Source: Myxococcales bacterium | GTDB taxonomy: Bacteria; Myxococcota; Myxococcia; Myxococcales; 40CM-4-68-19 | Direction of reading: 5' to 3' | Assembly: GCA_020201435.1 (NCBI GenBank) | Contig: JAIVGS010000189.1 | Span: 14,404 to 78,403 of the forward strand | Length of the DNA: 64,000 bases | In this document: positions 4,679 to 44,049 of the stretch, in pieces | How the letters are laid out: each line of letters starts with the position of its first letter | Numbering within the stretch: the stretch's first letter is position 1 | Notes under the pieces: generated by a model | What the model was told of the DNA's origin: nothing | The model's database searches: none | Seen by the model: the letters and a program-made list of their open reading frames with translations, nothing else | Position numbers and translations under genes: made by a program

Positions 4679-5662
4679 TCATCCCGCCAGCCGTTGCACG
4701 AGCCAGAACGCGCCGAGCACCGCGACGATCGCCGACAGCGGCGCGGCGAATCGGTGCAGACGGCGAACCAGCGGCAGCGCGATCACCACGATGCAAACCT
4801 GTCCGACCTCGACGCCGAGGTTGAAGGAGACGAGCCCGGTGGCGAGGACGTTGCGCGGCAGGTCGAGCCCGCGCAGCACCGAGGCGAACCCGAACCCGTG
4901 CACGAGGCCGAAGCCGAGCGTGACCATCCAGCGGTGGCGCAGCGCCTTCTCGGCCGCGCGCTTGCGAAGCGCCCAGAGATTCTCGACGCCGATGAAGACG
5001 ATGCTGGCCGCGATCAGCGGCTCGACCACGCGCGGCGAGGGCGCGAAGACGTTCAGCGCGGCGAGGGCGAGAGTGATCGAGTGCGCGACGGTGAAAGCGG
5101 TGACGATCTTGACCAGCTCGCCGAGCCGGCCGCCGAGAAGCAATAGGCCGATCAGGAACGCGATGTGATCGTAGCCGGTGAAGATGTGCTCGATGCCGAG
5201 GCGCAAGAAGCGCCAGAACTCCTCGCCCACGCTGCGGCTGCGGCGGGCTTCGAAGGTCGGTTCCTCCACCTGCACCGCGCGCTGCGAGATCTCGTCCGGC
5301 CCGAAGCCGATGCGCGAGAGGTGCGTGGCGCCGATCGGAAACCAGTCGAGGAACTCGACGCGGACGCTGACTTCCTCGATCTCGGCCGGGCAGATCCAGG
5401 ATGCCTTGATCGAAATCCCGTCTTCTCCGTCGGGAGCCGCCCTCGCCCCCGGCTGCAGCGCGCAAGGCTGACCGGACGACTTCACCACGTATGAATCGAG
5501 AAGCACTCCGGCCGGCTGGTTGCGCACGTCGGCCAGCGCGAATCGCAATTCGCCCGTGATCTCGCGACCATGGACGTCGAGCTCGCTGTAGGAGACGGTC
5601 GCCTGATGTGCGACAGCCGCGATCGGCAGCAGCGCCGTCGCGAGCAGGGCCTCAGTGCGCAA
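4679..5662 (-). CDS. HupE/UreJ-family membrane protein
   Basis: 327 aa. Signal peptide, then 'GYDHIAFLIGLLLLG...FTVAHSITLALAAL...HGFGFA', typical of HupE/UreJ_2. Confidence 0.7.
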   Translation of the reverse strand: MRTEALLATALLPIAAVAHQATVSYSELDVHGREITGELRFALADVRNQPAGVLLDSYVVKSSGQPCALQPGARAAPDGEDGISIKASWICPAEIEEVSVRVEFLDWFPIGATHLSRIGFGPDEISQRAVQVEEPTFEARRSRSVGEEFWRFLRLGIEHIFTGYDHIAFLIGLLLLGGRLGELVKIVTAFTVAHSITLALAALNVFAPSPRVVEPLIAASIVFIGVENLWALRKRAAEKALRHRWMVTLGFGLVHGFGFASVLRGLDLPRNVLATGLVSFNLGVEVGQVCIVVIALPLVRRLHRFAAPLSAIVAVLGAFWLVQRLAG

Positions 5663-6194
5663 GCGGAAGGACGCCGGCGAGGAGGCGGTTGTTGCCGTCG
5701 TCGCGGCCGCGGCCGGGCGTGTTCAGCGTCAGCCGGTTGTCGCCCTGCGTGTAGAAGCCGAGAAAGAGGAACAGCGGATTGTGCCCGGGGATGAACCAGA
5801 ACGAATCCGCGATCACGTCACCGGGCTTCCACGCGTCGGTCGGGAAGCGGCCGCCGGCGGGATCGTGCTCCGCGTGGATGCGCTCGCCGGTCCCGGTCGC
5901 GTCGTCGAGGTGGACGAAGATGTGCCACGCCTCCATCTCGGCCTTGCATCGCCAGTAGAGGGTCAGCTTCGATCGCTGCCCGGGGACCAGCGAGGGCGGC
6001 TCGAGCTTGTACGCGACCAGCTCGGCGGAGTTGCCGAACAGCGCTCCGACCGGCGTCGCGTCGGCCGGCGGCGGGACCAGCACGTCCCGCAGCGCCGAGC
6101 GATCGACCTGCGCCCGCGCCGCCGGCGGGCCCTCCTCGAACGGCCGTTCGATGCAGGCAGCGCAAAGGACCACGAAAATGCCCAATCGTCGCAC
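5652..6194 (-). CDS. putative lipoprotein (domain resembling the C-terminal domain of family-39 glycosyltransferases)
   Basis: Track ORF 5652..6239. I prefer GTG 6194, which gives 'VRRLGIFVVLCAAC' (signal plus lipobox-like Cys). 'LTLYWRC...WHIFVHLDD...FPTDAWKPGDVIAD' pattern. Confidence 0.55.
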   Translation of the reverse strand: MRRLGIFVVLCAACIERPFEEGPPAARAQVDRSALRDVLVPPPADATPVGALFGNSAELVAYKLEPPSLVPGQRSKLTLYWRCKAEMEAWHIFVHLDDATGTGERIHAEHDPAGGRFPTDAWKPGDVIADSFWFIPGHNPLFLFLGFYTQGDNRLTLNTPGRGRDDGNNRLLAGVLPLAH

Positions 6195-6247: not shown

Positions 6248-6673
6248 ATGTCGGCGAAAGTGGAACCGCTCGGCGCCTGGGAGCCGTACGTCGCGCATTC
6301 GCTGGCGCTCGGCATCGGCGTGCTGGCGGTGCTGGCGGCGGCGGTGCTGCTCGAGCTGTCGCGCACGCTCGCCGAGACCTACCGCGGCCGGTGGTTCGCG
6401 GGGAACGGCCGCGACGTCTTTCACGTCGGCGCGGCGGGCGTGCTCGCGGCGGCGCTCTTCGTCAACGGTCTGCCGCCCGCGCTCGCGTGCCTGGTCGCCG
6501 CGTCGCTGCTCCTGCTGCCGCTGGTGGTCCTCGATTCGCTTCCGCCGCGCCGTCCGGTGCGCCTCGCGCTGCTGCTCGCGCTGGTCGGCCTCGCCGCGGC
6601 GCCGCCGCTGATCGAGCCGCGGTCGATCGTCGGGACCGCGAACCTCGTCGCCCGCTACCTCTTTCCTCACTGA
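6248..6673 (+). CDS. hypothetical integral membrane protein
   Basis: 141 aa with about 4 hydrophobic helices and good GC3 bias. No recognisable motif. Confidence 0.5.
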   Translation: MSAKVEPLGAWEPYVAHSLALGIGVLAVLAAAVLLELSRTLAETYRGRWFAGNGRDVFHVGAAGVLAAALFVNGLPPALACLVAASLLLLPLVVLDSLPPRRPVRLALLLALVGLAAAPPLIEPRSIVGTANLVARYLFPH

Positions 6674-6918
6674 AGCAGCGGGTCGAGCTCGCCGCGCTCC
6701 TCGAGCGCGTAGAGATCGTCCGAGCCGCCGACGTGCTTCTCGCCGATGAAGATCTGCGGCACCGTCCGGCGGCCGGTTCGCTCCATGAGATTCATCCGCG
6801 CCTCGTCGTCGCCGGCGATGTCGATCTCCTCGTAGGGGACTTTCTTCCGCTCCAGGAGGCGCTTGGCGCGAACGCAGAAAGCGCAATACGGCGTGGTGTA
6901 GATTTTGACGGGCTTCAT
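6667..6918 (-). CDS. grxC: glutaredoxin (Grx3-like)
   Basis: 83 aa. 'KIYTTPYCAFCVRAKRLL...TVPQIFIGEKHVGGSDDL'. The active site reads CAFC rather than CPYC. Confidence 0.8.
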   Translation of the reverse strand: MKPVKIYTTPYCAFCVRAKRLLERKKVPYEEIDIAGDDEARMNLMERTGRRTVPQIFIGEKHVGGSDDLYALEERGELDPLLQ

Positions 6919-6927
6919 CCGTTGAAT

Positions 6928-7758
6928 CTAGAAACTCCGCGACTGCCCGCCATCGACGGTGACGCAGCAGCCGGCCATCCAGCTCGCTCGTGGGCTGAGC
7001 AGGAAGGCGATCACGTCGCCGATCTCTTCGGCGGTGCCGAAGCGGCCGAAGGGGATCTCCCGTTGCACGAACGCGACGGTGGTCGCCGGGTCGTTTTTCA
7101 GCCTGCGCTCCCACGAACCGCCCGGGTGCAGGATGCTGCCCGGTGCGAGGCTCAGAACGCGCACGCCGCGGGGAGCCAGCTCTCGCGCCTGCTCGTGGGC
7201 CAGCGCGATGAGCGCCGCCTTGGCCGTGTTATAGGCGAGCGGCCCGCCGCCCTCGCGTCCCCAGATGCTGGCGACGTGAAGGACGACGCTGGCGTCGCGC
7301 ACGGCCTGCGGCTCCTGCATCGCGGGAACCGGCTCTGAGAAGCCGCGCCGTGCGGCGCTGGCGATCAAATGAGGCAGCGCGTATCGGCTCGCGCGGATGG
7401 CCGGCCACAGGTTGCGCTCGTAGGCCGCTTCCCAATCCGCGCCAGAAAGCTCAGCCGTTCCGCCAGGTTGCGAGCCGCCAACGAGCGTGACCAGCGCGTC
7501 GAGCCCGCCGAACTCGGCGGCGGTCGCCTCGATCGCTTTTTTCAGGGAGGCCGGATCGGTCGCATCCGCCGCGATCCCGATCGTTTTTTCCGCGCCTGCC
7601 TTCAAGCATTCCGACGCTTTCGCTTCGACCGCCGCAGCCGTCCGCGCGACCACCGCGACCTTCGCTTTCTCCCGCGCCAGAGCAACGGCCGCCGCGCCAC
7701 CCAGCCCACGCCCCGCGCCGATGAGCAGGACCGATCTTCCGGCGAGTTGCAAGTCCAT
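6928..7758 (-). CDS. SDR-family oxidoreductase
   Basis: 276 aa. Gly-rich NAD(P) motif 'LIGAGRGLGGA', catalytic 'YNTAKAAL' (YxxxK), C-terminal 'VTVDGG'. Confidence 0.8.
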   Translation of the reverse strand: MDLQLAGRSVLLIGAGRGLGGAAAVALAREKAKVAVVARTAAAVEAKASECLKAGAEKTIGIAADATDPASLKKAIEATAAEFGGLDALVTLVGGSQPGGTAELSGADWEAAYERNLWPAIRASRYALPHLIASAARRGFSEPVPAMQEPQAVRDASVVLHVASIWGREGGGPLAYNTAKAALIALAHEQARELAPRGVRVLSLAPGSILHPGGSWERRLKNDPATTVAFVQREIPFGRFGTAEEIGDVIAFLLSPRASWMAGCCVTVDGGQSRSF

Positions 7759-7770
7759 GGAGCGACAGTA

Positions 7771-7809
7771 CCAAAATGCAAAGGCCCGCCGGTTTCCCCG
7801 ACGGGCCTT
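7771..7809 (-). terminator. intrinsic terminator downstream of groEL
   Basis: Minus strand reads AAGGCCCG-13 nt loop-CGGGCCTT, followed by TGCATTTTGG. It sits 38 nt after the groEL stop. Confidence 0.6.
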
Positions 7810-7846
7810 CGCTGAACGAACCGGTAGCCGGCAGCCGGTGGCCTGA

Positions 7847-9774
<1,928 letters not shown>

Positions 9775-9796
9775 GGTCTTTCTCTCCTTAGAGGTG

Positions 9797-9823
9797 TTGG
9801 CACTCAGCACAGGTGAGTGCCAA
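9797..9823. promoter_or_regulatory. CIRCE operator (HrcA binding site)
   Basis: TTGGCACTC-N9-GAGTGCCAA, a perfect 9-bp inverted repeat. Consensus is TTAGCACTC-N9-GAGTGCTAA. Located between the promoter and the groES start. Confidence 0.9.
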
Positions 9824-9832
9824 GGCGGGCGC

Positions 9833-9860
9833 AATGTAACCGGCTGGAAACCCATGTCAA
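9833..9860 (-). promoter_or_regulatory. sigma70-like groESL promoter
   Basis: Minus strand TTGACA (9860-9855) -N16- TACATT (9838-9833). CIRCE begins 9 nt downstream. Confidence 0.6.
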
Positions 9861-9909
9861 GGGGGTCGGCAACTTGCGGACCGGCCGGTCTAACGTACTA
9901 TTTTGAAGC

Positions 9910-10506
9910 ATGACCGACGACCCGGTTCTGTCGCCGCAGTCATTACGGGAGTTCTTTCGCGACCTCCTTCAGCGCGCTTTGGAGAACCAGCGCGCGCAGG
10001 TCCAGCCGTTCACCGAGCTCTACCTCGTGAACCTGCTGCACGAATTCCTCCTCTCCGAGGCGCTCTACGTGCAGGCAGACGACGGCACCTGGCAGCAGAA
10101 GCCGCTTGCCTTCCTGCTCAAGGAGGCGCTGGAGGAGGCGGGACCGTCCCGGGTGCATCTGCTGAGACGGCTGGGCGACACGTCGCTGTTCGTCTCCGGC
10201 TTTTTCCCTGATTCGCTCGCGCGCAGGTCGTCGCTGGTCGACGTCGACTACTACATCGCGATGGGCGGGCGGGCGTACGACGCGGTCGGCGTCCTCGGCG
10301 GCCACCGCGACCTCTGGGCGGAGCTGTCGTCGCGGTTCCGGCTTCTCGTCGACCTCCTGAACGAAGTGAGCGAGCGTACCCAGGCGTCGACCAACGCCGG
10401 CCTGGTCCGCCTTTACGAGCGTTGGAAGAAGACCGGGTCGGAGCGGCTCGCCTCGCTCCTCGTCCGACAGGGCGTGACGCTCTCGCTCAAGGGCTTCGTC
10501 CAGTGA
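9910..10506 (+). CDS. hypothetical protein
   Basis: 198 aa with good GC3 bias. Stop overlaps the next start (GTGA at 10503). No motif recognised. Confidence 0.55.
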   Translation: MTDDPVLSPQSLREFFRDLLQRALENQRAQVQPFTELYLVNLLHEFLLSEALYVQADDGTWQQKPLAFLLKEALEEAGPSRVHLLRRLGDTSLFVSGFFPDSLARRSSLVDVDYYIAMGGRAYDAVGVLGGHRDLWAELSSRFRLLVDLLNEVSERTQASTNAGLVRLYERWKKTGSERLASLLVRQGVTLSLKGFVQ

Positions 10507-33487: not shown

Positions 33488-33916
33488 CTACTGCACGCCG
33501 CCGTCGGAGAGCGTGAAGCGGCAGGACGATTCGCCGCCGGCCTTGACCAGCATCGTCCGCGACGGGCCGCCGGGGACGGTGAGCGTGTAGCGGCCCTCGT
33601 TGAGCGCCGGCAGCGTGCAGTGCATCACCCGCTGGATGCAGCCCTGGTCGAGGCACGCCCCGCTGAGGAAGCTGATGCACTGGTCCTGCGTCACGTCGAG
33701 CGCGACCGAGGCGTTGCGCAGGAGCGCGGTGCAGCTCGGCATGTCGCTGCAGCCGTTTCCGCACAGCTCGCGGACCTCGATCACCGAGGGGATGCCGGGG
33801 GCGATCGACGCCGGCAGGCAGACGTCGCCGACGTCGGCGGTCTTGTTGTCGCAGCTGTCGCCGTTGTCGGTGCACGCGCAGGTCAGAAGGATCGCGCCGG
33901 CGGCGAGAAAGCGCAT
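33488..33916 (-). CDS. secreted Cys-rich protein (12 Cys)
   Basis: 142 aa. Signal 'MRFLAAGAILLTCAC', with 12 cysteines spread through the mature part. Lies 9 nt downstream of the preceding membrane-protein gene. Confidence 0.6.
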   Translation of the reverse strand: MRFLAAGAILLTCACTDNGDSCDNKTADVGDVCLPASIAPGIPSVIEVRELCGNGCSDMPSCTALLRNASVALDVTQDQCISFLSGACLDQGCIQRVMHCTLPALNEGRYTLTVPGGPSRTMLVKAGGESSCRFTLSDGGVQ

Positions 33917-33925
33917 CGCCGTTCC

Positions 33926-34243
33926 TTACATCGCGGCGAGCAGGCGGGAAAGGTAGAAGAGGACGTCGAGCGCGACCAGCGACAATGCGGTGGCGGCGGC
34001 GATCGTCAGCGGGGTGCGGCGAGGTGGGAGCTTCCAGGCGATGGCCGCGGCCGCGAGCGAGGCGATGGAGGCGACGATCAGGTCGCCGTAGTAGCGCATC
34101 TGCACGGCGTTGGTGACGCGGCCGAAATGAGCGCCGCGCGCGACCGGGTCGTAGATCAGGACCGGCAGTTGGAGCGTCCCGGGCAACAGGTATCCGACGG
34201 CGAACGCGCCCACCGCCGCGAGCGCTGTCCGCAGCTCTCTCAT
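33926..34243 (-). CDS. small 3-TM membrane protein
   Basis: Start re-set to ATG 34243 ('MRELRTALAAVGAFAV'), 105 aa. Overlaps the upstream stop (ATGA). Confidence 0.55.
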   Translation of the reverse strand: MRELRTALAAVGAFAVGYLLPGTLQLPVLIYDPVARGAHFGRVTNAVQMRYYGDLIVASIASLAAAAIAWKLPPRRTPLTIAAATALSLVALDVLFYLSRLLAAM

Positions 34244-34674
34244 ACCGAATGGCGCGCGGTGACGTAGAGGCCGATCGCCGCCGCCGTCCAGAGGAAGGCG
34301 GCGCCGGTGCAGGAGAGGGCGGCGACCGGCCATGGCGTTTCTTCGTCCGCCTTGCGGCCGGCGAAGGCCGCGCCGATCACGAGCGCAAGGGCGAGCGCGG
34401 CGAGGTGCTCCTTGAGATCGAAGAGCTGCACCGCGATCGGGGCGCTGCGCTCGAGGTCGGCCGCGCGCACGTTGACGCGGTATGCCGGATAGATGGCGAG
34501 CCCGGTCACGGCCTGGGCGAGGATCGAGGCGGGGGCGATCCAGCCGAACCGGCGCAGCGCGCGCGCCTGCGGTTTCCCGAGCGCGGCGAGCACCGCGTGC
34601 GCGGCGTGGTGGGTGGCCGCGAAGACGGCGGTGAAGCCGAGGATCGCGTGCGAGATGAGCAGCGCCTTGATCAC
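34240..34674 (-). CDS. 4-TM membrane protein with His cluster in TM1
   Basis: 144 aa. 'ISHAILGFTAVFAATHHAAHAVLAAL'. Its GTG start overlaps the rSAM stop (GTGA at 34671-34674). Confidence 0.6.
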   Translation of the reverse strand: MIKALLISHAILGFTAVFAATHHAAHAVLAALGKPQARALRRFGWIAPASILAQAVTGLAIYPAYRVNVRAADLERSAPIAVQLFDLKEHLAALALALVIGAAFAGRKADEETPWPVAALSCTGAAFLWTAAAIGLYVTARHSV

Positions 34675-35876
34675 AGGACGTGCAACTTCCTGGGGACGCG
34701 AAGGCGCGGCTGCGCCGCGGCCATCATCTCCCCGGCACGGTATTCCTGCACGCGCGGGCAGCCGGGATCGGGAGCGGCGAACGCGCCGTGCGCGGCGGAC
34801 ACCGCCCGGCAGCCGCCGCGGCAGAGGCGAAGGTAGTCACAGGACGCACACGGCTCGGGCGCGGCCGCGACGTAATCGCGAAATTCGCGAAATGCGCCCG
34901 GCCACGCGGTTTTCATCGAGCCTTCGACTCGCGCGTCGGCCGCGGCCTGCGCGGTGAAGGAGCAGCCGGTGAACGCGCCTTCGGGCTGCACGGCCGCGAG
35001 CACGTCGCCGCCGACGCAGCCTTGCACGCCGAAGAACGCGGCGGCTGTTCTGGACGGCTTGTGCCAGAAGACCATCGGGGCGAACGAGCAGTCGAGCTTG
35101 ACGCGGATTCGATGGCGAAAGACGAGCCGGCGCGCCATCGGGAACAGCTCTCGAGCCTGCTCCTGCGTCAGCTCCTCGTCGAGCCGCGCGCCGCGGCCGA
35201 CCGGCTTGAAGCGCAACAGCTCGAGCTCGTTGAGCCGCAGGTTTCGCACCAGCCGCGCGACCTCCGGCACCTGGTCGAACGAGCTGCGGCTGACGACGCA
35301 GTTGACGCCGACCTCGGGTTTGACTGCGCGCAGCAGCCGGAGCGCCCGCTCCGCGTGACGGAAACCATCGAATCCACGGGCTTTTTCATACGCGGGCCCG
35401 ACGCCGTCGACGCTGACGTTGATCTGGCCGAAGACCGCGCACTTGCGCGCGGCGGCCTCGTCGACGCCGAGGCCGCTGGTGGTCAGGTTTGGCGTGATGC
35501 CTTTCGAGCGGGCGTGGGCCGCGACCGCGAACAGATAGTCGAGCTCGAGCGCCTCGCCGCCGCCGAGCGCGACGTGGAAGACGCCCATCGCAGCGAGCTC
35601 GTCGAGGATCCGGCAGGCATCCTCGAACGGGAGCGCCGCGCCTTGGGGAGTGGCGTCGACGTAGCAGCCCTTGCATCCGGCGGCGCAGCGGCGCGACAGC
35701 ACGACGTGCACCTCGGTCGGAGCGCTCAAGGGCCCTTCTTCCGGCAGGTCCCAGAGCGGCGACTCCGGCTCACCCAGCTCGCGCATCATCTCGCGGTCGA
35801 CGTGCAGCAGCGCGCGCGGCCGCTGCAGCTCGACGATGCCGCCGAACCGCTCGGCGCGGACCCGCGCGACCTTCAC
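34671..35876 (-). CDS. radical SAM / SPASM-domain enzyme (peptide-maturase type)
   Basis: Carved from the 720-aa read-through ORF. GTG 35876, 401 aa. CX3CX2C 'CAAGCKGC', 'GGGEAL', and a SPASM Cys pattern 'GCVGG...GAFTGC...CASCDYLRLCRGGC...GCP'. Confidence 0.85.
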   Translation of the reverse strand: MKVARVRAERFGGIVELQRPRALLHVDREMMRELGEPESPLWDLPEEGPLSAPTEVHVVLSRRCAAGCKGCYVDATPQGAALPFEDACRILDELAAMGVFHVALGGGEALELDYLFAVAAHARSKGITPNLTTSGLGVDEAAARKCAVFGQINVSVDGVGPAYEKARGFDGFRHAERALRLLRAVKPEVGVNCVVSRSSFDQVPEVARLVRNLRLNELELLRFKPVGRGARLDEELTQEQARELFPMARRLVFRHRIRVKLDCSFAPMVFWHKPSRTAAAFFGVQGCVGGDVLAAVQPEGAFTGCSFTAQAAADARVEGSMKTAWPGAFREFRDYVAAAPEPCASCDYLRLCRGGCRAVSAAHGAFAAPDPGCPRVQEYRAGEMMAAAQPRLRVPRKLHVL

Positions 35877-36034
35877 CGCCGATCCCGCCGCAGAAGCGAG
35901 CCGAGCAGCACCGCCATCGCGCTGGCGAAGACGGCGCCGAACAGCAGGAACGTGACGTCGACTCCCAGCGAGCTGGAGTTCGGGTTGCAGCCGAACGTGG
36001 CCTGCAGCACGCGGCCGCGGCGGAAGAGCTTCAT
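35873..36034 (-). CDS. unlisted 53-aa ORF: Gly-Cys / TM helix / Arg-cluster mini-protein (candidate rSAM substrate)
   Basis: Manual translation gives MKLFRRGRVLQATFGCNPNSSSLGVDVTFLLFGAVFASAMAVLLGSLLRRDRR*. 50 of 53 codons end in G/C. Its TGA overlaps the rSAM GTG (GTGA). It starts 9 nt after the upstream stop. Confidence 0.65.
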   Translation of the reverse strand: MKLFRRGRVLQATFGCNPNSSSLGVDVTFLLFGAVFASAMAVLLGSLLRRDRR

Positions 36035-36043: not shown

Positions 36044-37117
36044 CTACTTCTTGTTGTCGCTCGCGTGTGGATGGGGCGCGGGTCGGGAAGCGGGCGGGGC
36101 GGCGGGTGCGGCTCGGGCCGGAGGAGGCGGCGCGTAATAACGCATGCCGCCGCCGCCGCGGGGCCCGCTCGGACGTGCACCCGGGCCCGGCCCGCTCGGA
36201 CGTGCACCCGCACCCGGCCCGCTCGAACGAGGCGCCCCGGTGTACGGCCGCGGGGCTGCGCCGGGCCGTCCGACGGGGGCCGGCGCGGCCTCGGCGCGGG
36301 GCCTCGCCTGGACCGGAGAGCGCATCGGATCGCCGGCCGTCCGCATCGGCGCCGGAGAGGACGTCGCGCGCGGCCGGATCACGTTCGCCGCCGCGACGCG
36401 CGGGACCGGCTGGCCGACCGCGCGCTGGATGCCCGCGACCGGCGGTCCGAACGAACCGGTTCGCATCGGCCGCGCGCTCGGCCCGCCCAGCGGCCGCGCG
36501 GTGGTCACGATCGGCGCGGTCTGCTGCGTCGGCACCGCGGCGCGCGGGATCGGCTGCGTGAAGTGACGCTCGGGGACTGCGACCCACGCCGGATGGCGGT
36601 AGCCGAAGACGACCCCGTCCGGTCCGAGCGGACACCACGCGGCGTACCCGCCGCCGTAGCGCCAGCTCACCCAGGCCGGAGCCCAGACGCGGCCGGGGAT
36701 CCAGTACCAGCCGACGCCGATCCCGAAGTTCCAGCGGCCGTAGTGGTACGCGGCCCAGCCCCACGGATCGTCCGAGACGAAAGTCCAGCCCCAGTCGGTC
36801 AGGACCCAGCGCCCGTAATAGTAGGGGCGCCAACCGTACCCGACGGCGGGGATCCAGACCCGGCCGTATGGGGCGACATACGTCCAGGTGCCGTACGGCG
36901 AGAGGCCGCCGTAAAAGACGTCCTCGTCGGCGATCTCGCTGCCGGCGGGCGGCGGCGGCTCCTGCGTCTGATAGCTGGAATCGGGCGGGACGGTGTCAGG
37001 CCCCGGGGGAGGCGGCGCAGCCACGGTCGGCTCGGGTTCGCGCTCGTACGGGCGTTCGACGATGCAGCCGAACGACGCGGTGAGAGCCAGAGTCAGGATG
37101 GTGCCCAATGAACGCAT
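36044..37117 (-). CDS. YXWGXW-repeat lipoprotein with Pro/Arg/Gly-rich C-terminal tail
   Basis: Start re-set to ATG 37117 ('MRSLGTILTLALTASFGC', lipobox). Repeats 'YGRVWIP', 'YYGRWVLTDWGWTF', 'PWGWAAYHYGRWNF', 'GWYWIPGRVWAPAWV'. Confidence 0.7.
   Translation of the reverse strand: MRSLGTILTLALTASFGCIVERPYEREPEPTVAAPPPPGPDTVPPDSSYQTQEPPPPAGSEIADEDVFYGGLSPYGTWTYVAPYGRVWIPAVGYGWRPYYYGRWVLTDWGWTFVSDDPWGWAAYHYGRWNFGIGVGWYWIPGRVWAPAWVSWRYGGGYAAWCPLGPDGVVFGYRHPAWVAVPERHFTQPIPRAAVPTQQTAPIVTTARPLGGPSARPMRTGSFGPPVAGIQRAVGQPVPRVAAANVIRPRATSSPAPMRTAGDPMRSPVQARPRAEAAPAPVGRPGAAPRPYTGAPRSSGPGAGARPSGPGPGARPSGPRGGGGMRYYAPPPPARAAPAAPPASRPAPHPHASDNKK
36163..36233. repeat. 27-bp tandem repeat (about 2.6 copies) inside the YXWGXW gene tail
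   Basis: GCCCGCTCGGACGTGCACCCGGGCCCG / GCCCGCTCGGACGTGCACCCGCACCCG / GCCCGCTCGAACGAGGC... It encodes GARPSGPG units on the minus strand. Confidence 0.85.
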
Positions 37118-37144
37118 GCGGTTCTCCTCGGCTTTTTGACGGCC

Positions 37145-37174
37145 GGAAAACCCCTGCGATTCAAGACCCGCAGG
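37145..37174 (-). terminator. weak intrinsic terminator between the SDR-aminotransferase gene and the YXWGXW/rSAM operon
   Basis: Minus strand reads CCTGCG-10 nt-CGCAGG, followed by GGTTTTCC. Confidence 0.35.
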
Positions 37175-37202
37175 TCGTTGTTTCGCCCACATTGTAATGC
37201 GT

Positions 37203-38864
37203 TCAGGGGCTGAGCGCCCGTCTGGCAGCGGACACCGCCCGGTCGTTCTGGGCGCGGCGGCCGAGGGGGACGACGACGGCCGAGGGGTCCCAGTGCGCCT
37301 CCTGGACGGGCAAGCCGGCAGCCTGCAGGGCGAAGAGCAGGCGGGCCGCCGCCGGATGTCTGACGAGCAGGACGGGGGCTGGACTCTCGGAGACCGCGCA
37401 GCCGAGCTCGCGAAGGGCGGCGGCGATTCTTGCCCGCTCGCGGACGAGCAGCAGCCCGGCGCGCCGGGTGCGCTCCGGACGATCGAGGACGGCGTCCGCC
37501 GCGGCGATCTGCGGCGCGCCGAGAGGAAACGGCAGCTCGAGCTTGCGCAGCAGGGCGATCTGCTCCGGCGGGCCGATCGCGTACGCGACGCGCATCGCGG
37601 CGAGACCCTGCAGCTTGCTGAACGAGCGAATCCGGATCGCGCCAGACGGCTTCGGCGGTTCGAACGACCACGCTTCGTCGAGGACGAGAGGAATTCCGGT
37701 GCGCTCCAGGAGCGATCCCTCGCCTGCGGGCAGGGTCGCGCCGGTCGGGTTGTCGGGCGAGGCCACGTAGAGCAGCCGCGTCCGCGGGCCGATGGCGGAG
37801 AGGAGCGGAGCGGCGGAGTGGGCCGGCTCGAACAGACCGTCCGGCCTGCGGCGCGCGGGCACGGCGCGGTGGCGGACGCCTTCCCGCGAGCAGAGCGCGG
37901 AGAGAACTTCGAAGGTCGGGAAGGGGCTGACGATCTCGTCCCCCCGCGAGCAGAAGACGCGGATCGCGCGCTCGATCAATTCGGTCGCGCCGCCGCCGGA
38001 GAGCGCGACGCAGCTTTCGTCGACGCCGTGCAATGAGGCGATGCGCGCGGCGAGGCGGGCGGCGCCGCGAGGGTAGGCCTGCAGTGGAATCGATTTCAGC
38101 GCGGCGCGGACCCGTGGCGACGGTCCGCGGCCAGGCTCGGCCTCGAGCGGCGGCTCGCGGAACGGCTCGACGTCGGCGAGCCGGCCGTCGCCCGCGAGCG
38201 CAGCGGCGGGATCCAGTTGCAGCGCCTCGGCGTCGAGGATCCGGCCCGTCCCCGGGAGCGCGGCGGCCGTGATCACGAGCGGTGCGATCTCCTCGGCCGA
38301 GGGGAATTTCTCGAGCCATTCCGCTGGTGTACCGGCGTCGACGTGCAGCTGCGTACGGACCGGGCCGAGGCAGAGCGCGTTGGCGCGGGCGCGGGGCCAG
38401 CACTCCTCCGCGAACGTGCGCACCATCGATTCCAGCGCCGCTTTGGCGGCGGTGTACGGGCCAGCACCCGGCATCGGCGGCCGCCGCGTGGCGAGGCTCG
38501 AGAGAAAGAAGACATGCTTCGCGCCCCTCCGAAGGAGCGCACCGGCCGCCACCGCCGGGGCCACCGCGTTGGAAAAAAAATGTTTTTTCATTTTTTCTGC
38601 GCCGGCGTCCTCGAGGGCCACCGCCCGGTGGGCCGAGCCGACGCAGATCAGCGCCAGGTCGACCGCGCCGGCCGCCGCCGCGAACTCCTCCGCGCCTGCA
38701 TCGGTCGACACGTCCGCCACGATCGCCCGCGCGCCGGTCTCGGCCGCGACGGCGCGGATCTCGTCCGCCGTCCGCGCGCAGATCGTCAGCTCGGCGAGCC
38801 CCCGCAGCGCGCGGGCGCACGCGGCGCCAATTCCGCGCCCGGCGCCCGCGATGGCGACTTTCAA
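37203..38864 (-). CDS. fusion protein: N-terminal SDR plus C-terminal class I/II (HisC-like) aminotransferase
   Basis: 553 aa. SDR part: 'IAGAGRGIGAA', 'YTAAKAALESM'. Aminotransferase part: 'SPDNPTG', 'VLDEAW', 'RSFSKLQGLAAMRVAY' (PLP Lys). Confidence 0.75.
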   Translation of the reverse strand: MKVAIAGAGRGIGAACARALRGLAELTICARTADEIRAVAAETGARAIVADVSTDAGAEEFAAAAGAVDLALICVGSAHRAVALEDAGAEKMKKHFFSNAVAPAVAAGALLRRGAKHVFFLSSLATRRPPMPGAGPYTAAKAALESMVRTFAEECWPRARANALCLGPVRTQLHVDAGTPAEWLEKFPSAEEIAPLVITAAALPGTGRILDAEALQLDPAAALAGDGRLADVEPFREPPLEAEPGRGPSPRVRAALKSIPLQAYPRGAARLAARIASLHGVDESCVALSGGGATELIERAIRVFCSRGDEIVSPFPTFEVLSALCSREGVRHRAVPARRRPDGLFEPAHSAAPLLSAIGPRTRLLYVASPDNPTGATLPAGEGSLLERTGIPLVLDEAWSFEPPKPSGAIRIRSFSKLQGLAAMRVAYAIGPPEQIALLRKLELPFPLGAPQIAAADAVLDRPERTRRAGLLLVRERARIAAALRELGCAVSESPAPVLLVRHPAAARLLFALQAAGLPVQEAHWDPSAVVVPLGRRAQNDRAVSAARRALSP

Positions 38865-40615
38865 TGCCGGTACCCGTGCGCGATCGGAAAGCGCCAGCCC
38901 TCCCCGAACGCCCGCGCCGTCACCCGCAGCGCCGGGGCTGCCTGCCGCCGCTTGTACTCGCTCTGGACCACGAGCTTGAGCACGCGCCGGACGAGATCCT
39001 CACTGAATCCGCGCTCTTTCAGCGCCTCCGCGCCGAGATGCTCCTCGACGTGTCCGCGCAGGACGCGATCGAGCTGGTCGTACGGCGGCAGCGTGTCCTG
39101 GTCGGTCTGATTCTCGCGCAGCTCGGCTGTCGGCGGCCGCTCGATGATGCGCGCCGGGATGATCTCGCGCTCCCGATTGAACCACCGGGCGAGCGCGTAG
39201 ACCGCCGTCTTCGACAGGTCCCCGATCGCCGCCAGCCCGCCGGCCATGTCGCCGTACAGCGTGCAGAAGCCGGTGGCGAGCTCGCTCTTGTTGCCGGTCG
39301 AGAGAAGCAGGGCGCCGGTCTTGTTCGAGAACGCCATCAGGAGCGTCCCGCGGATGCGCGCCTGGAGGTTCTCCTCGGTCACGTCCGGCTTGCGGCCGGC
39401 GAAGATCGGCGCCAGCGCCTGGAGGTACGCCTGGAAGATCGGCTCGATGGCGATCGTACGGTGGTGCACGTCCAGCCTTCGGGCGAGCAGCTCGGCGTCG
39501 TCGTTGCTCATCGACGCGGTGTAGCGGGAAGGCATCGCGAAGGTCGTGACGTTGGCCGATCCGAGCGCGCGCGCCGCTAGGACTGCGGTCACGGCCGAAT
39601 CGATCCCGCCGGAGAGTCCGAGCACGGCGGTCTTGAAGCCGGTCTTGAGCGTGTAGTCGCGGATTCCGAGGGTCAGCGCGTCGGCCAGGTCGCTGCAGGA
39701 TTCGTCAGTGAATTCGGACTCATACGCGGCCACGACGGCGAGCGCGCCCGGGGTCGGTTCGGCGATCTCGTCGCAGATGATCGACGAGCCGCCCTCCTGC
39801 ATCGGCCTCGCCGATCGCGCCGTCTGCGCCGGCGAAGGCGCGAGCTCGTCGACGACGAGGTCCTCGGCGAATGCCTTCAGCTCGCGCCGCACCTCGCCTC
39901 CGGCGCTGACCAGCAGCGATCGGCCGTCGAAGATGAGCGAGTCGTTTCCGCCGACGAGATTGCAGAGCGCGATCGGCAGCCGGTGGCGCCGCGCCGCCGC
40001 TGCCACCATGTCGCGTCGCACCTGCGGCTTTCCCACCGCGTACGGAGAGGCCGAGAGGTTCACGATCGCCTCCGCGCCGCGCCCCGCGAGCTCTTCGATC
40101 GGATCGCGCAGGTACCGCTGCTGCCGCCAGAATTGCTTGTCGTTCCAAAGGTCTTCGCAGATGGTCACGCCGATCCGCGCGCCCGCGATCTCCATCACGG
40201 TCGGGTGCGCCCCGGCGTCGAAATAGCGGCCCTCGTCGAAGACGTCGTAGGTGGGCAAGAGGCACTTGCGCACGATTCCGGCGATGCCGCCGCCCTGCAG
40301 CAGCGCGACCGCGTTGAACAGGCCGGCGCCGGGCCCGCCGTGGCGCTCGGGAAATCCGACCAGCGCCGGGGTCTTCCGGAACACGGCGTTCTCGGCCAGC
40401 TGGTCGAGCGCCGACCGGCAGCGGGCGACGAACTCGTCGAGCTCGAGGAGGTCCTTGGGCGGGTAACCGCACAGCGTCAGCTCGGGAAAGACGACGAGCT
40501 GCGCACCCTGCTCGGCCGCTTTCGCCGTCTGCGCGACGACCTTCGCGGCGTTGCCGGCGAAGTCGCCGACCGTGGTATCGATCTGTGCAAGTCCGATCCG
40601 CACGCCTGGTGCCAT
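38861..40615 (-). CDS. nadE: glutamine-dependent NAD+ synthetase
   Basis: Nitrilase-like N-domain ('VVFPELTLCGYP') plus synthetase domain ('VLGLSGGIDSAV'). ATG 40615 is preferred; the track start at 40639 is a TTG directly after the upstream TGA. Confidence 0.88.
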   Translation of the reverse strand: MAPGVRIGLAQIDTTVGDFAGNAAKVVAQTAKAAEQGAQLVVFPELTLCGYPPKDLLELDEFVARCRSALDQLAENAVFRKTPALVGFPERHGGPGAGLFNAVALLQGGGIAGIVRKCLLPTYDVFDEGRYFDAGAHPTVMEIAGARIGVTICEDLWNDKQFWRQQRYLRDPIEELAGRGAEAIVNLSASPYAVGKPQVRRDMVAAAARRHRLPIALCNLVGGNDSLIFDGRSLLVSAGGEVRRELKAFAEDLVVDELAPSPAQTARSARPMQEGGSSIICDEIAEPTPGALAVVAAYESEFTDESCSDLADALTLGIRDYTLKTGFKTAVLGLSGGIDSAVTAVLAARALGSANVTTFAMPSRYTASMSNDDAELLARRLDVHHRTIAIEPIFQAYLQALAPIFAGRKPDVTEENLQARIRGTLLMAFSNKTGALLLSTGNKSELATGFCTLYGDMAGGLAAIGDLSKTAVYALARWFNREREIIPARIIERPPTAELRENQTDQDTLPPYDQLDRVLRGHVEEHLGAEALKERGFSEDLVRRVLKLVVQSEYKRRQAAPALRVTARAFGEGWRFPIAHGYRH

Positions 40616-40639
40616 AACGGGCGCGCTGGCGCAGGTCAA

Positions 40640-43600
40640 TCAGGGACGGACCTGCACCGTTCCGGTTCGTGCGAGCTTGCCCCAGCCGACCGCGAATCCC
40701 GCGAGCGCGTTCCAGAGCGAGCGAATCAGCGCGACCCAGAGGAGTTGCCGGTAGGCGATTCGCTGGACGAACAGGCCCGCGAGCAAGCCGAGATCCTCTC
40801 CTTCGAGCAGCACCGCGACCGCCGAGAGCAGCAGGTCGAGCGCGAAGAAGAGCAGGTAGTAACCCGCAGTCGCCAGCGCGCGACCCCGCAGGAGCGAAAC
40901 GAGCAGGAGGATGTCCACCACCGGGGCCACGAACGGTACGATGAATTGATAGATGGCGAACGCGGGCAGGATCGCCCACCCGAGGACGCCGCCGCCGCGC
41001 CGGAACAGCCGCGACTTGTGCTTCCAGCACGCCTGGAGGACGCCGTACGTCCAGCGGAACCGTTGTTTCAAGAGCGATTCCGCCGTCTCCGGCGCCTCGG
41101 TATACGCGAGCGCCTGATCGGCGTAGACGACGCGGAATCCGGCCGCGATCAACCGCAGGGTCAGATCGGTGTCCTCGGCGAGCGTGTCCTCGTGGAATCC
41201 GCCGGCGTCGAGGACGGCCTTTCGCCGCCAGGCGCCGACCGCGCCGGGAACGACCGGCACCGCGCCGGCCAGGTCCCACGCGCGCCGCTCGAGGTTCTGC
41301 GCGGTCACGTACTCGAGGGCCTGCCACCGCGTCAGCCGGTTGACGCGATTGCCGACTTTCGCGTTGCCCGCGACCGCTCCGACGCGCGCGTCGGCGAACG
41401 GCGCGGTCAGGCGGGCGACGGTCTCCGGCGTGAAAATCGTGTCGCTGTCCAATGCGACGACGACCTCGCCCCGGGCTTCCGCAAATCCGAGATTGAGCGC
41501 GCTTGCTTTGCCTCCGTTCGGCTTGCCGAAGATGCGCACCCGCGGATTGCCGTCGAATTTCTCGTGTAAGACCGCAAGAGTACGGTCCTTGGAGCCGTCG
41601 TCGACGCAGACCACTTCCGCTACTTGAGGCTCCTGCGCGAGCAGAGAATCGACGGTGCGCGCGATCACCGCTTCCTCGTTGTAGGCCGGCACGACGACCG
41701 AAACCGTCAGCCCCGGCGGCGGCCGCTGCAGCCCGTTGCGGCGCGCCCGCCGCGCCTGCAGCGGCGCGAGCACCGCGAGGATGACGGCGCGCAGCGCGAG
41801 CAGCGCGATGGCGAACGCGAACAGCGGTCCGAGCGCGCGCGCGATCCCGCCGAGGATGCCGAAGACGACGCTGTCCGCGCTCGCCACCAGCGCCGACGCC
41901 GGCGCACGCGGAGCGGGCGGCAGCAGCTGATCGCGCGTGAACCCGGTCATCTCTTCCGGAGTGGCCAGCGCCAGACCCTTCGCCGCGAGCCCGTCGAGGA
42001 TCAGGGGCAAGGCCGCGAGGGTCGCCGACCGATCGCCGCCGCCGTCGTGCAGCAGGATCACCGATCCCTTGTCGACCTGCGCCAGCACGCGCGACGCGAT
42101 CACTTGCGGATCGCGCTCGGCGAAGTCCTCCGGATCGATGTCCTGGCCGAGCGTCAGGTACCCCATCTGTGACGCGCGTGCGATCACCTGCGCGTTCTGC
42201 GCTTCGTCGAGCGCCTCGTCGGAGTGATACGGCGGCCGGAACAGGCGCGGCTGCCGTCCGGTGATCCACTCCAGCAGCCGCTCGTTGACGTTGAGCTCGA
42301 CCTCCAGCCGCAGCGGCGAGACGCGCGAGAGATCCGGGTGGGTATAGGTGTGATTCCCGATCTCGTGTCCCTCCACATACTCGCGCCGCACCAGGTCCGG
42401 GCGTGCCTGCGCGTTCTCGCCGATGAGGAAGAACGCGGCTTTCGCACCCCGTGCCTTCAGGAAATCGAGGATCTCCGGCGTCCACTTCGGGTCCGGCCCG
42501 TCGTCGAACGTGAGCAGCACTTTTCCCGCCGGCTTCGCGCCGTGGCGCTCGAGGATCCATCCCGACGGGTACTGCTGATAATCGACCCGCGCGACGTGCC
42601 CGGCCGGATCCCACGCCACCGTCCGCCGCCCCGACTGCGGCCGCGCTTTGAGCGAGAAGACCTCGCCCTCACCGACCAGCGCGACGTCGTCGGGATCGTG
42701 CGCGGTGATGACGCCGTCGAGGCGCTGCCGCGCCAGGCTCTCGTCGAACCGGCGCTGCTCGGGAGGCCTGGCGAAGAGATCGAACACCCGCGGGTCCTCG
42801 GCACCGAGCCGCCAGATGGCGACGCCGCGGACGTGGAGCGGCTCGAGCGCCTCGAGCTGCGCGGCCATCGCCGGCGCGTCGAGGAAACGCACCTCGTGCT
42901 TCTCGTGCGCCTGGTCGTCGTCGTACTCGAAGTACGAGGTCTTCGAGTCCTGGTCCCACTCGATCGGGACCTCGTTCTCCCGCGCCAGAGCCAGCGCCTG
43001 GCCGAACGCGAGCTCGTCCGCCGGCCGCGCCGTGTCCCCGTCGGAATCGAGCGGCCAGTCGTAGCCATAGGCGCCGAGGGCGACGACGATCCTGTCGGCG
43101 GGCGCGCGCCGAAGGTATGCCGCCGCGCTCTCGGCGACGTAGTCCGGCGTCGCGATCGGCCCCGGATTGTCGGTCGAAGCGTGCTGGTCGTACGCCATCA
43201 CCACCAGAAAATCGGTCGCGGCCGCGAGCCGTTCGACCGGAACGCCGCGCAATTCGGCCGGCACGTCGACGCTCAGCAGGAAGCCGCGCGGATGCAGCTC
43301 CGTCCACGCCTGCTCGACGAACGCGGCGAGCTCCTGCCACAGCCTCGGATCGAGGTCCTCGAAGTCGAGGTTGACCCCGGCGAACCCGCGCTCCTCGCAG
43401 AGCCGCGCGAGCCGCTGGGCGCCGTCTTTTCGGGAGAGGAACGTCTTCACCAGCTCGCGCCGGAACTGCCCGTCCGCATAGTTCGAGACCGTCGGCGTCA
43501 ATTCCAGCCGCGCCGCCGCCTGCGCCAGGCGAGGATCCTCCTCGATCAGGAAGCTGCCGTCGCGATCGAGCCGGATCCACTCCGGCATCGCGTGCGTGAG

Positions 43601-43978
43601 CTGGTCGGCATGCGCCTGCAGCGAGGTCAGGCTCTGCGGATCCCAGTTGACCGCGAATCCCGCCAGCACCGGCTCCCGCGCATCGGCCGGTTTGCGCCGC
43701 CGCTGCGCGGCCTGTGCCTCGGTCAGTAGCGTTTTGAGACGGGCAGCCTCGTTTCGATACGCCCGTTCCCGCGCCTTGCTCTCCAGCGGATGGCCGGCCG
43801 GCAAGACGCCGCGGCCCACCGGCGCAGGCTCGGGCTCCGCCGCGCTCCTGCTCCACGGCGCAGGAAAGATCGAGACGAGAAACACGCCGAGCGCCGCCAC
43901 GGCTCCCGCCGCGCCGAGCACCGACGCGGCGCGAACCGCGCGTCCGCGCACTCCCGATTCATCACGAAACACGCTCAT
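40640..43978 (-). CDS. triple-domain exopolysaccharide enzyme: GH18-like, CE4 polysaccharide deacetylase and family-2 glycosyltransferase (PgaC/NodC-like)
   Basis: About 1112 aa from ATG 43978 (track start 44017). GH18-like 'GVNLDFEDL'. NodB 'LLTFDDGPDPKWTPEILD...GNHTYTHPDL'. GT2 'VSVVVPAYNEE...VCVDDGS...ALDSDT...QRFRWTYG'. Multiple TM helices. Confidence 0.8.
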   Translation of the reverse strand: MSVFRDESGVRGRAVRAASVLGAAGAVAALGVFLVSIFPAPWSRSAAEPEPAPVGRGVLPAGHPLESKARERAYRNEAARLKTLLTEAQAAQRRRKPADAREPVLAGFAVNWDPQSLTSLQAHADQLTHAMPEWIRLDRDGSFLIEEDPRLAQAAARLELTPTVSNYADGQFRRELVKTFLSRKDGAQRLARLCEERGFAGVNLDFEDLDPRLWQELAAFVEQAWTELHPRGFLLSVDVPAELRGVPVERLAAATDFLVVMAYDQHASTDNPGPIATPDYVAESAAAYLRRAPADRIVVALGAYGYDWPLDSDGDTARPADELAFGQALALARENEVPIEWDQDSKTSYFEYDDDQAHEKHEVRFLDAPAMAAQLEALEPLHVRGVAIWRLGAEDPRVFDLFARPPEQRRFDESLARQRLDGVITAHDPDDVALVGEGEVFSLKARPQSGRRTVAWDPAGHVARVDYQQYPSGWILERHGAKPAGKVLLTFDDGPDPKWTPEILDFLKARGAKAAFFLIGENAQARPDLVRREYVEGHEIGNHTYTHPDLSRVSPLRLEVELNVNERLLEWITGRQPRLFRPPYHSDEALDEAQNAQVIARASQMGYLTLGQDIDPEDFAERDPQVIASRVLAQVDKGSVILLHDGGGDRSATLAALPLILDGLAAKGLALATPEEMTGFTRDQLLPPAPRAPASALVASADSVVFGILGGIARALGPLFAFAIALLALRAVILAVLAPLQARRARRNGLQRPPPGLTVSVVVPAYNEEAVIARTVDSLLAQEPQVAEVVCVDDGSKDRTLAVLHEKFDGNPRVRIFGKPNGGKASALNLGFAEARGEVVVALDSDTIFTPETVARLTAPFADARVGAVAGNAKVGNRVNRLTRWQALEYVTAQNLERRAWDLAGAVPVVPGAVGAWRRKAVLDAGGFHEDTLAEDTDLTLRLIAAGFRVVYADQALAYTEAPETAESLLKQRFRWTYGVLQACWKHKSRLFRRGGGVLGWAILPAFAIYQFIVPFVAPVVDILLLVSLLRGRALATAGYYLLFFALDLLLSAVAVLLEGEDLGLLAGLFVQRIAYRQLLWVALIRSLWNALAGFAVGWGKLARTGTVQVRP

Positions 43979-44049
43979 TTCGAGACCCTTTGACGCACGC
44001 GCAGCCGCTTCATGCAACGGGTGTGCCGGCCTGTGTTACACACCCACCC

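Follow-up and report, generated by a model that had tools for sequence, protein, structure and literature searches.

What does a frame of only 53 codons do when it is placed directly before the gene of a radical S-adenosylmethionine (SAM) enzyme, and is it a gene at all? This question arises from a 64,000-nucleotide stretch of DNA of a Myxococcales bacterium (assembly GCA_020201435.1, contig JAIVGS010000189.1, positions 14,404 to 78,403 of the forward strand), hereafter the window, in which a short open reading frame (ORF) at 35873-36034 of the minus strand overlaps the start of the gene of a radical SAM/SPASM enzyme (34671-35876, minus strand). An earlier note, made from the letters of the window, had proposed that this mini-ORF encodes a membrane-tethered substrate of the enzyme. 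We found that the mini-ORF is a genuine gene under protein-level purifying selection. With moderate confidence we regard its product, a small single-pass membrane peptide resembling a tail-anchored protein, as a dedicated partner of the downstream enzyme, most probably its substrate, which would be modified in a polar loop containing the motif NPNSSS.

Identification of the small gene

On the minus strand, the mini-ORF extends between its ATG at 36034 and its TGA at 35875-35873, and its translation (MKLFRRGRVLQATFGCNPNSSSLGVDVTFLLFGAVFASAMAVLLGSLLRRDRR, followed by the stop) is identical to the 53 amino acids given in the earlier note. As read directly from the sequence, its TGA and the GTG start codon of the enzyme gene overlap in the tetranucleotide GTGA (35876-35873), and its ATG is located 9 nt past the stop codon of the upstream gene (TAG 36046-36044). 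The earlier note had missed that the mini-ORF is also in frame with this upstream gene, which encodes a lipoprotein of the DUF6600 family, so that one TAG and three codons stand between them (KK*HGGMKLF, the asterisk being the stop). The codon composition was as previously described: 50 of the 53 codons end in G or C (the exceptions are GGA24, CTT47 and GAT51), and upstream of GTG 35876 the frame of the enzyme, in which G or C at the third codon position (GC3) amounts to just 0.49, translates into Arg/Ala/Pro-rich junk. A sliding frame-specific GC3 profile moves from the frame of the enzyme into that of the mini-ORF at about 35870. Taken alone, GC3 is weak evidence, because open 53-codon frames with at least 50 codons ending in G or C begin at about 6% of all positions of the window (69% GC); the decision on the reality of the mini-ORF therefore rests on comparative data.

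A protein database search returned 273 homologues of the peptide, the best 120 of which are 51-92 aa long and 73-100% identical to it. In a profile search against 1.8 billion cluster representatives, the family comprised 296 clusters (50% identity) at E ≤ 1e-3 and 90 clusters at E ≤ 1e-10; P0416, a 1445-aa repeat protein, was rejected as a false positive of this search. When the radical SAM protein was searched against species-representative genomes, 37 loci were found, all in Myxococcota metagenome-assembled genomes (MAGs), and every locus for which upstream DNA was available has the mini-ORF directly before the radical SAM gene; the outcome by which the earlier note would have been refuted, a lack of a conserved frame at syntenic loci, is thus clearly contradicted. 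The amino acids of a 17-residue block (NPNSSSLGVDVTFLLFG) are almost invariant over 33 loci while each of its codons shows synonymous variants, and the serine codons under its invariant residues change between the AGC and TCN families. Purifying selection was also evident from the pairwise ratio of nonsynonymous to synonymous differences (pN/pS), which was 0.26 in the N-terminal core and 0.66 in the hydrophobic helix. The number of homologues, the presence of the frame in all related loci with upstream DNA and the synonymous variation together place the mini-ORF far beyond chance.

These data also bear on the trivial explanation that the mini-ORF is a chance frame in high-GC DNA, or a shadow feature, and that the radical SAM protein starts further upstream. 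Spurious ORFs are indeed common at such a composition (here, 12 kb are overlapped by 82 ORFs with a length of 40 aa or more), and the frame of the enzyme stays open as far as 36833. It loses its coding composition upstream of 35876, however, as the GC3 value given above indicates, and the N-terminus of the enzyme (V/M-K-..), which immediately follows the stop/start overlap NTGA (N being any nucleotide), is conserved in all lineages and fixes the start at GTG 35876; the peptide itself is under selection at the protein level, and the plus-strand ORFs that overlap the mini-ORF fail a coding-composition filter. Both a chance frame and an upstream start of the enzyme are refuted by the comparative data and retain practically no probability.

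The gene had been called hidden, which it is not: an identical 53-aa protein is already annotated at NCBI as 'hypothetical protein LC689_12560 [Myxococcales bacterium]'. No paralogues of it were found within the window. Family members are stand-alone ORFs of 50-110 aa, present in more than 100 loci, and have variable N-terminal extensions, each with its own start codon. In metagenome contigs, at least 504 matches to the pattern GxNPNSSS[LI]G were confirmed as relatives of the peptide; among the distant clusters, organism names were available for two, namely Desulfobacterales and 'Deltaproteobacteria' MAGs. No Pfam or NCBIfam model matched the peptide family, no paper mentioning the motif 'NPNSSS' was found in the searchable library, and a literature search for SPASM precursors with transmembrane (TM) helices returned only general reviews on peptides that are synthesised by ribosomes and modified after translation (RiPPs). 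In several sequences (proteins P0361, P0363 and P0437, and positions 818-2074 of locus L105) the peptide is fused in frame to fragments of the radical SAM enzyme, for example at an RRPR/RPRALL micro-homology; these do not appear to be natural fusions, they look like deletions or assembly errors, and they were excluded from the evidence.

The shared frame with the DUF6600 gene raises another explanation, namely that the mini-ORF is a MYXO-CTERM-like sorting tail of the upstream lipoprotein, either severed from it by a mutation or a sequencing error or joined to it by stop-codon read-through. The tripartite layout of a motif, a TM helix and an Arg cluster fits such a tail, and one distant family member gives a sub-threshold match to the MYXO-CTERM model, limited to the TM helix and the Arg pair (11 bits, with a cutoff of 15.85 bits). 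This model is TIGR03382 (GC_trans_RRR) in NCBIfam, not TIGR03901 as cited in the earlier note, and it did not match the peptide of the window at E ≤ 0.1 or even at E ≤ 10, with or without added upstream residues. Moreover, the stop codon before the mini-ORF differs between loci and may be TAG, TAA or TGA, and in other clades one finds a different upstream gene, a gene in another frame, a distance of hundreds of nucleotides to the preceding gene, or junk in the upstream frame. The start codons on the variable N-terminal extensions and the lack of a conserved Gly-Cys in the family point in the same direction. The use of all three stop codons and the other upstream genes and frames in other clades rule out a read-through or pseudogene tail of the lipoprotein, an explanation that we consider very improbable; the mini-ORF is independent of the upstream gene.

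Of the comparison with MYXO-CTERM tails, there remains the hydrophobic helix followed by an Arg-rich cluster (V27-L48 and RRDRR); the match to the model, the Gly-Cys and the C-terminal position in a larger protein did not hold, the peptide being encoded by a stand-alone gene and not forming the end of a bigger, secreted protein that carries an N-terminal signal peptide. Reading 'FGC' as a MYXO-CTERM signature or as a lipobox was rejected, as there is no match to the hidden Markov model (HMM), the Cys is variable and no hydrophobic signal-peptide core precedes it. The same three residues occur in the DUF6600 lipoprotein within a lipobox-like ASFGC, which is probably a coincidence. With MYXO-CTERM, PEP-CTERM and LPXTG tails the peptide thus shares the layout only (a signature motif, a hydrophobic helix and a basic cluster), and it differs from them in having its own start codon, an NPNSSS motif and a radical SAM neighbour instead of a sortase-like protease.

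Architecture of the peptide

The layout proposed previously, in which a basic N-terminus is followed by a polar loop, a single hydrophobic helix and an Arg cluster, was borne out by the sequence and by the columns of the family alignment, the consensus of which is [RK][RK]-G-[RK]-[IV]-L-x-[VI]-[KR]-[WLF]-G-x-N-P-N-S-S-S-L-G-x-D-[VIL]-[TS], followed by a variable hydrophobic helix, LR[RK] and a variable Ala/Pro/Glu-rich tail. According to column statistics, residues R5-G15 (RRGRVLQATFG; 35990-36022, minus strand) constitute a basic segment with alternating hydrophobic residues and the consensus [RK][RK]G[RK][IV]L.[VI][KR][WLF]G, which makes it a candidate beta-strand recognition element. Next to it is the signature loop G15-x-N17-P-N-S-S-S-L-G24 (35963-35992, minus strand), defined by invariant or near-invariant columns with synonymous codon variation and present in 138 of 138 representatives. 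An alignment of 63 family sequences shows no variation at G15, N17, N19 and S20 and a conservation of at least 90% at the remaining positions of the motif, such as P18, S21, S22 and G24. We consider this loop the candidate modification site.

The earlier note had singled out the Cys of 'FGC', but the conserved block turned out to be G-x-N-P-N-S-S-S-L-G, with a variable residue at position 16 (Y47, L30, M21, V15, F10, A6 and C4 among representatives at 50% identity). Cys16 is restricted to the clade of the window and is replaced by V or A in other Myxococcota (an Archangiaceae-like clade). Since Cys16 is not conserved, the Cys thioether suggested in that note is not a family-wide chemistry.

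The single hydrophobic helix V27-L48 (35891-35956, minus strand) was delineated by Kyte-Doolittle hydropathy and pN/pS. Its sequence is variable and its hydrophobicity is constant, with a mean Kyte-Doolittle value of 1.89 over 23 residues in 254 family members; D26 and T28 at its N-terminal edge are conserved. It is followed by the C-terminal basic cluster RRDRR (35876-35890, minus strand), which corresponds to LR[RK] plus a variable Ala/Pro/Glu-rich tail of 0-40 aa in the relatives, and the basic tail is accordingly conserved across the family. Lys and Arg are more abundant in the N-terminal flank of the helix than in the C-terminal one (4.24 versus 3.19), the N-terminal flank having the higher value in 70% of the members. 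Because of this difference a cytoplasmic N-terminus, with the loop within reach of the enzyme, is mildly favoured and is the probable orientation judging from the sequence.

Coupling to the radical SAM gene

Among the 113 loci with enough downstream DNA, the radical SAM gene is found directly downstream of the peptide gene and on the same strand in 106. The junction has the form NTGA in 101 of these 106 adjacent pairs (54 GTGA, 43 ATGA and 4 TTGA), and it is retained despite the fact that the C-terminal tail of the peptide ranges from 0 to about 40 aa. The translational coupling that had been claimed for the window is conserved, and a small co-oriented ORF and a maturase gene are conserved here as a pair, as in RiPP-type precursor/maturase systems. 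In a Desulfobacterales MAG with 30% GC (locus L038) the two genes are adjacent and convergent.

In the window, four genes at 33926-36034 (minus strand) are linked by 4-nt overlaps. The peptide gene overlaps the radical SAM gene in GTGA 35876-35873, which in turn overlaps a gene for an integral membrane protein, d144, in GTGA 34674-34671, and d144 overlaps another membrane protein gene, m105, in ATGA 34243-34240. This arrangement suggests that the peptide, the enzyme, d144 and m105 are made as one translationally coupled unit. In most lineages outside the clade of the window, the peptide gene is instead preceded by a gene for a protein with tetratricopeptide repeats (TPR) and TM helices, referred to below as the TPR-TM protein.

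The radical SAM/SPASM enzyme

The enzyme consists of 401 aa, starting at GTG 35876, and was assigned by Pfam PF04055 and NCBIfam TIGR04085 matches, an AlphaFold2 (AF2) model and a Foldseek search. The cysteines of the radical SAM cluster, C64, C68 and C71, are arranged in a CX3CX2C motif (35664-35687, minus strand) located in invariant columns. The SPASM region (34758-35090, minus strand) contains eight invariant cysteines (C263, C287, C305, C343, C346, C352, C356 and C373), including a CX2CX5CX3C motif, and scores 34.6 bits with TIGR04085, above the cutoff of 27. The enzyme thus carries both sets of cluster ligands, CX3CX2C and the SPASM auxiliary-cluster cysteines, that are expected of a maturase.

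All of the best equivalog models scored below their cutoffs: MftC with 118 of the required 265 bits, GeoRSP with 93 of 400 and PqqE with 86 of 381. The enzyme is neither MftC (TIGR03962) nor PqqE (TIGR02109), and no MftA- or MftB-like genes were found in the operon and no pqq gene context around the radical SAM gene. The name 'mycofactocin radical SAM maturase' given to one database homologue, P0311, is probably an over-annotation. The closest relative of solved structure in a sequence search of the PDB was PqqE (E 1.4e-12), and matches to NirJ and AhbD, which modify haem, were obtained as well (E 1e-25 to 1e-21). The AF2 model had a pLDDT of 91. Its best Foldseek match was SuiB with a bound peptide (E 1.9e-16, TM-score 0.71), followed by anSME, SkfB, PqqE and CteB; the lipid enzyme GDGT-MAS was matched more weakly. 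The substrates of SuiB, anSME, SkfB, PqqE and CteB are all peptides or proteins. No family model or paper for this radical SAM subfamily was found in NCBIfam, Pfam or the searchable literature.

The N-terminal extension of the enzyme, residues 3-33 (35778-35870, minus strand), is modelled by AF2 as three beta-strands (3-9, 12-17 and 22-27) and a short helix, at a pLDDT of about 93. Its motif, E.FGGI[VL].L..P.AL..VDR..M..LG.P.SP.W, ranks with the best-conserved regions of the enzyme throughout the lineages examined, and R7, E9, F11, G12 and P20 are invariant. In the model it looks like the sheet half of a RiPP recognition element (RRE), that is, a partial RRE, and we propose it as the sheet to which the peptide may dock. 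At 2054-3586 (minus strand) of locus L038, the radical SAM gene call has about 135 additional N-terminal residues with an RRXRR Pfam match and a RuvC-like GIDPGTNNIGVAV motif (IscB/Cas9-like); these residues probably represent a remnant or result from an ORF that was called too long.

Comparison with known peptide/radical SAM systems

The pairs PqqA/PqqE and MftA/MftC similarly combine a tiny, highly conserved peptide gene with an adjacent SPASM radical SAM gene, do not require an exporter and keep a few residues invariant or nearly so across wide divergence; MftC and PqqE are moreover the top sequence relatives of our enzyme. The present system differs from them in having no separate PqqD/MftB chaperone and in equivalog scores far under the cutoffs, and its peptide has a TM helix, which PqqA and MftA precursors lack. 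The E-X3-Y motif of PqqA and the C-terminal GVY of MftA are both absent from the peptide.

SuiB of the streptide system (SuiA/SuiB), which is the best fold match, as well as CteB and SkfB likewise have an N-terminal beta-sheet element before the radical SAM barrel. In our enzyme, however, this element consists of only about 35 aa (three strands and one helix) and is not a full winged-helix RRE, whereas the peptide has no Lys-Trp or Cys donor motif, is membrane-anchored and is accompanied by neither a protease nor an ABC exporter. A further likeness is to anSME (fold match E 2e-14), a SPASM enzyme that oxidises, in its protein substrate, a Ser or Cys side chain belonging to a short conserved motif, as the signature of the peptide holds three conserved Ser residues (one invariant, two at least 90% conserved). 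There is no sulfatase gene nearby, though, and the sequence match is limited to the SPASM Cys motif; the substrate motif of anSME, (C/S)-X-(P/A)-X-R, is absent from the peptide. In its mode of working the system resembles the pairs PqqA/PqqE, MftA/MftC and SuiA/SuiB and yet falls outside each of these families by their own membership tests.

Substrate or membrane adaptor

From these results, a hypothesis regarding the function of the pair may be formulated. Ribosomes that end the peptide at its TGA would re-initiate on the overlapping GTG, and the peptide and the enzyme would be made together. The segment RRGRVLQATFG may then pair, as an added beta-strand, with the three-stranded N-terminal sheet of the enzyme, which would act as a cut-down RRE, and such docking would place the loop G-x-N-P-N-S-S-S-L-G into the active site with SAM and the [4Fe-4S] cluster. 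There, the 5'-deoxyadenosyl radical could take a hydrogen from Asn or Ser, with the electron being passed to the two auxiliary clusters of the SPASM region, and the Asn or Ser would become cross-linked, dehydrogenated or epimerised; a Cys thioether would not be formed. The hydrophobic helix and the Arg cluster would keep the modified peptide anchored to the inner membrane; its partners there might be d144 and the 105-aa protein m105 in the window, or the TPR protein with four TM helices in most other lineages. The reality of the gene, its conserved motif, coupling and co-occurrence, and the class and fold of the enzyme are established by the data; we infer how the peptide docks, where and by which chemistry it is modified, how it is oriented and what its membrane partners do.

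Two observations led us to favour a substrate over an anchor: the enzymes most closely related to this one have peptide or protein substrates, and the polar loop stays conserved despite the drift of the enzyme, a pattern of the PqqA/MftA type. Eight consecutive residues of the motif are invariant or at least 90% conserved even where the enzyme has drifted to about 46-50% identity. From the earlier proposal of a membrane-tethered substrate, the peptide remains the best candidate for the peptide partner or substrate of the enzyme, given the conserved coupled pair, and the Cys-centred chemistry falls with the variable Cys16.

The most serious alternative is that the peptide is not a substrate and serves as an adaptor or anchor, a stoichiometric subunit tethering the radical SAM enzyme to the inner membrane and to d144, m105 or the TPR-TM proteins, while the enzyme acts on another molecule, which could be one of the membrane proteins, a polysaccharide, a lipid or a cofactor such as haem. 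The matches of the enzyme to NirJ and AhbD and, more weakly, to GDGT-MAS are compatible with this, all co-conserved partners are membrane proteins, and the AhpC/TlpA-like thioredoxins and TPR membrane proteins nearby are reminiscent of cofactor-maturation systems. On the other hand, the best relatives of the enzyme in both sequence and fold use peptides or proteins, an eight-residue polar loop that is so conserved across deep divergence would be unusual for a passive anchor, and no gene of an alternative substrate is conserved across lineages. On balance, we judge the adaptor explanation rather unlikely.

Several observations nevertheless weigh against a substrate peptide modified by this enzyme. 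The computed data fit a tightly bound subunit as well as they fit a substrate, and NTGA coupling implies synthesis of the peptide and the enzyme at a ratio of about 1:1; a strict ratio of this kind is met more often between the subunits of a complex than between an enzyme and its substrate, and favours the adaptor. In loci L121, L122 and L127 the peptide gene accompanies a TPR-TM gene and no radical SAM gene follows, which likewise speaks for an adaptor, and in L068 neither the radical SAM gene nor any other tested partner gene was detected. No conserved protease or exporter gene was found near the system among the loci examined. The N-terminal sheet of the enzyme gave no PqqD/RRE match in Pfam, and the helices that complete a winged-helix RRE are absent from the AF2 model. 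Finally, the hydrophobic helix has basic residues on both sides, hence flank charge does not settle the topology.

It may also be considered that the loop is modified independently of the radical SAM enzyme, by N-glycosylation at N19-S-S or by phosphorylation and dephosphorylation of Ser, and that the linkage to the radical SAM gene reflects only shared regulation. N-S-S is a formal N-X-S sequon, a large gene with glycoside hydrolase family 18 (GH18), deacetylase and glycosyltransferase family 2 (GT2) domains belongs to the same gene string in the clade of the window, and genes of periplasmic metallophosphoesterases are repeatedly encountered close to the system in several lineages. The glycosyltransferase and the phosphoesterase are both non-universal neighbours, in contrast to the radical SAM gene, which is present in 106 of the 113 loci, and the stop/start overlap couples the peptide specifically to that gene. 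We therefore regard modification by other enzymes as improbable.

Membrane partners and gene neighbourhood

The d144 gene (34240-34674, minus strand, GTG start) encodes a 144-aa integral membrane protein with four helices, as judged from the AF2 model (pLDDT 90.5), and was linked to the system by co-occurrence. It contains an invariant His9, a T21-H22 pair that is invariant in the clade of the window, and the motifs YP.YR..VR and FD.KEH. No Pfam or NCBIfam family was found for it and no paper in the searchable library, and its fold matches were weak and generic (CtaE/cytochrome oxidase subunit III type, E 0.08). It occurs with the peptide and the radical SAM enzyme in both Myxococcota clades. 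In that of the window it is placed downstream of the radical SAM gene, and in the other clade most loci have it 1-2 kb upstream; in locus L023 it is up to about 3 kb away on the opposite strand. The TPR-TM proteins were considered as possible homologues of d144 in their TM part, which was rejected, the hhalign probability of 13.6% being not significant.

The m105 gene (33926-34243, minus strand) encodes a 105-aa protein with three TM helices. The longest ORF, 33926-34333, runs over the end of d144, and the real start is probably ATG 34243. An HMM match (E 2.7e-7) relates m105 to a '133-aa' family, members of which adjoin the system in the distant Myxococcota clade (4514-4915 in locus L028 and 2857-3237 in L023); no Pfam or NCBIfam model was found for this family, and no paper on m105 in the searchable library. 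Directly after m105, at 33488-33916 (minus strand), is a gene of a Cys-rich putative lipoprotein of 142 aa (MRFLAAGAILLTCAC...), conserved only in the clade of the window and without a family match.

The TPR-TM protein has a signal peptide and a TPR region, with four TM helices in its C-terminal part; it is 284-418 aa long where complete and is poorly conserved. A scan limited to Pfam gave no significant family, just faint TPR matches. Its genes were located at 4870-6045 (minus strand) in L038, 3-1094 in L121, 3884-4984 in L123, 45-1220 in L126, 3757-4905 in L127, 3705-4961 in L128 and 4902-5756 in L028. Beside the TPR gene of L123 there is, in this one lineage, a gene of an Rce1-like CPBP intramembrane protease (3113-3772, minus strand), and two more radical SAM/SPASM genes, one of them fused to a carbamoyltransferase, are situated just downstream (6522-10189, minus strand).

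Upstream of the peptide gene, at 36044-37192 (minus strand), lies the gene that the earlier note had recognised as a YXWGXW lipoprotein; it belongs to Pfam DUF6600 (PF20245, E 6.5e-31), and the C-terminal half of the protein is long and Pro/Ala/Gly-rich, with near-repeats (GPGAGARPSGPGPGARPSGP). It is syntenic only in the clade of the window, and it is operon context only, outside the conserved core. The same holds for the synteny of three genes further upstream in the same orientation, which encode a fusion of a short-chain dehydrogenase/reductase and an aminotransferase (37203-38864, minus strand), a glutamine-dependent NAD+ synthetase, NadE (38861-40639, minus strand), and the 1125-aa protein with GH18, polysaccharide deacetylase and GT2 domains (40640-44017, minus strand).

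Periplasmic metallophosphoesterases, AhpC/TlpA-like thioredoxins and carbamoyltransferases are recurrent, non-universal neighbours. The phosphoesterases are of the calcineurin-like or purple-acid type (2421-3449 in L020, 3081-4130 in L115, 1847-2299 in L121 and 564-2078 in L128), and in one protein, P0464, which may be a chimera, the peptide is fused to a partial phosphoesterase. In L127 a carbamoyltransferase gene (6335-8083) follows the system.

Significance

Pairs of a SPASM radical SAM enzyme and a small peptide have repeatedly yielded new chemistry, including PQQ, mycofactocin, streptide, sactipeptides and darobactin. The present system is compact, as it consists of two genes with an expected mass change within a window of ten residues. 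It also indicates that ORFs shorter than 60 aa overlapping the starts of enzyme genes merit systematic comparative checks.

A precursor that is transmembrane, apparently non-exported and supplied with dedicated membrane partners is unusual for a radical SAM/peptide system. Tentatively, and with less assurance than for the substrate role itself, we suggest that the peptide and the enzyme represent an undescribed and widespread class of membrane-tethered peptides modified by radical SAM enzymes, a 'RiPP that never leaves the membrane', and that this class may comprise about 300 sequence clusters, extend at least over Myxococcota and Desulfobacterales MAGs and be abundant in soil metagenomes. The TM helix of the peptide, the lack of an exporter or protease and the membrane partners suggest that the product has its site of action in the membrane and is not a secreted natural product; it could be a cofactor, a signal or an assembly factor. 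If this is true, GxNPNSSSLG would become a fixed chemical structure, for instance a peptide-derived cofactor or a cross-linked head group, which is anchored in the inner membrane and functions there with its dedicated partners, the TPR-TM protein with its four TM helices, d144 and m105.

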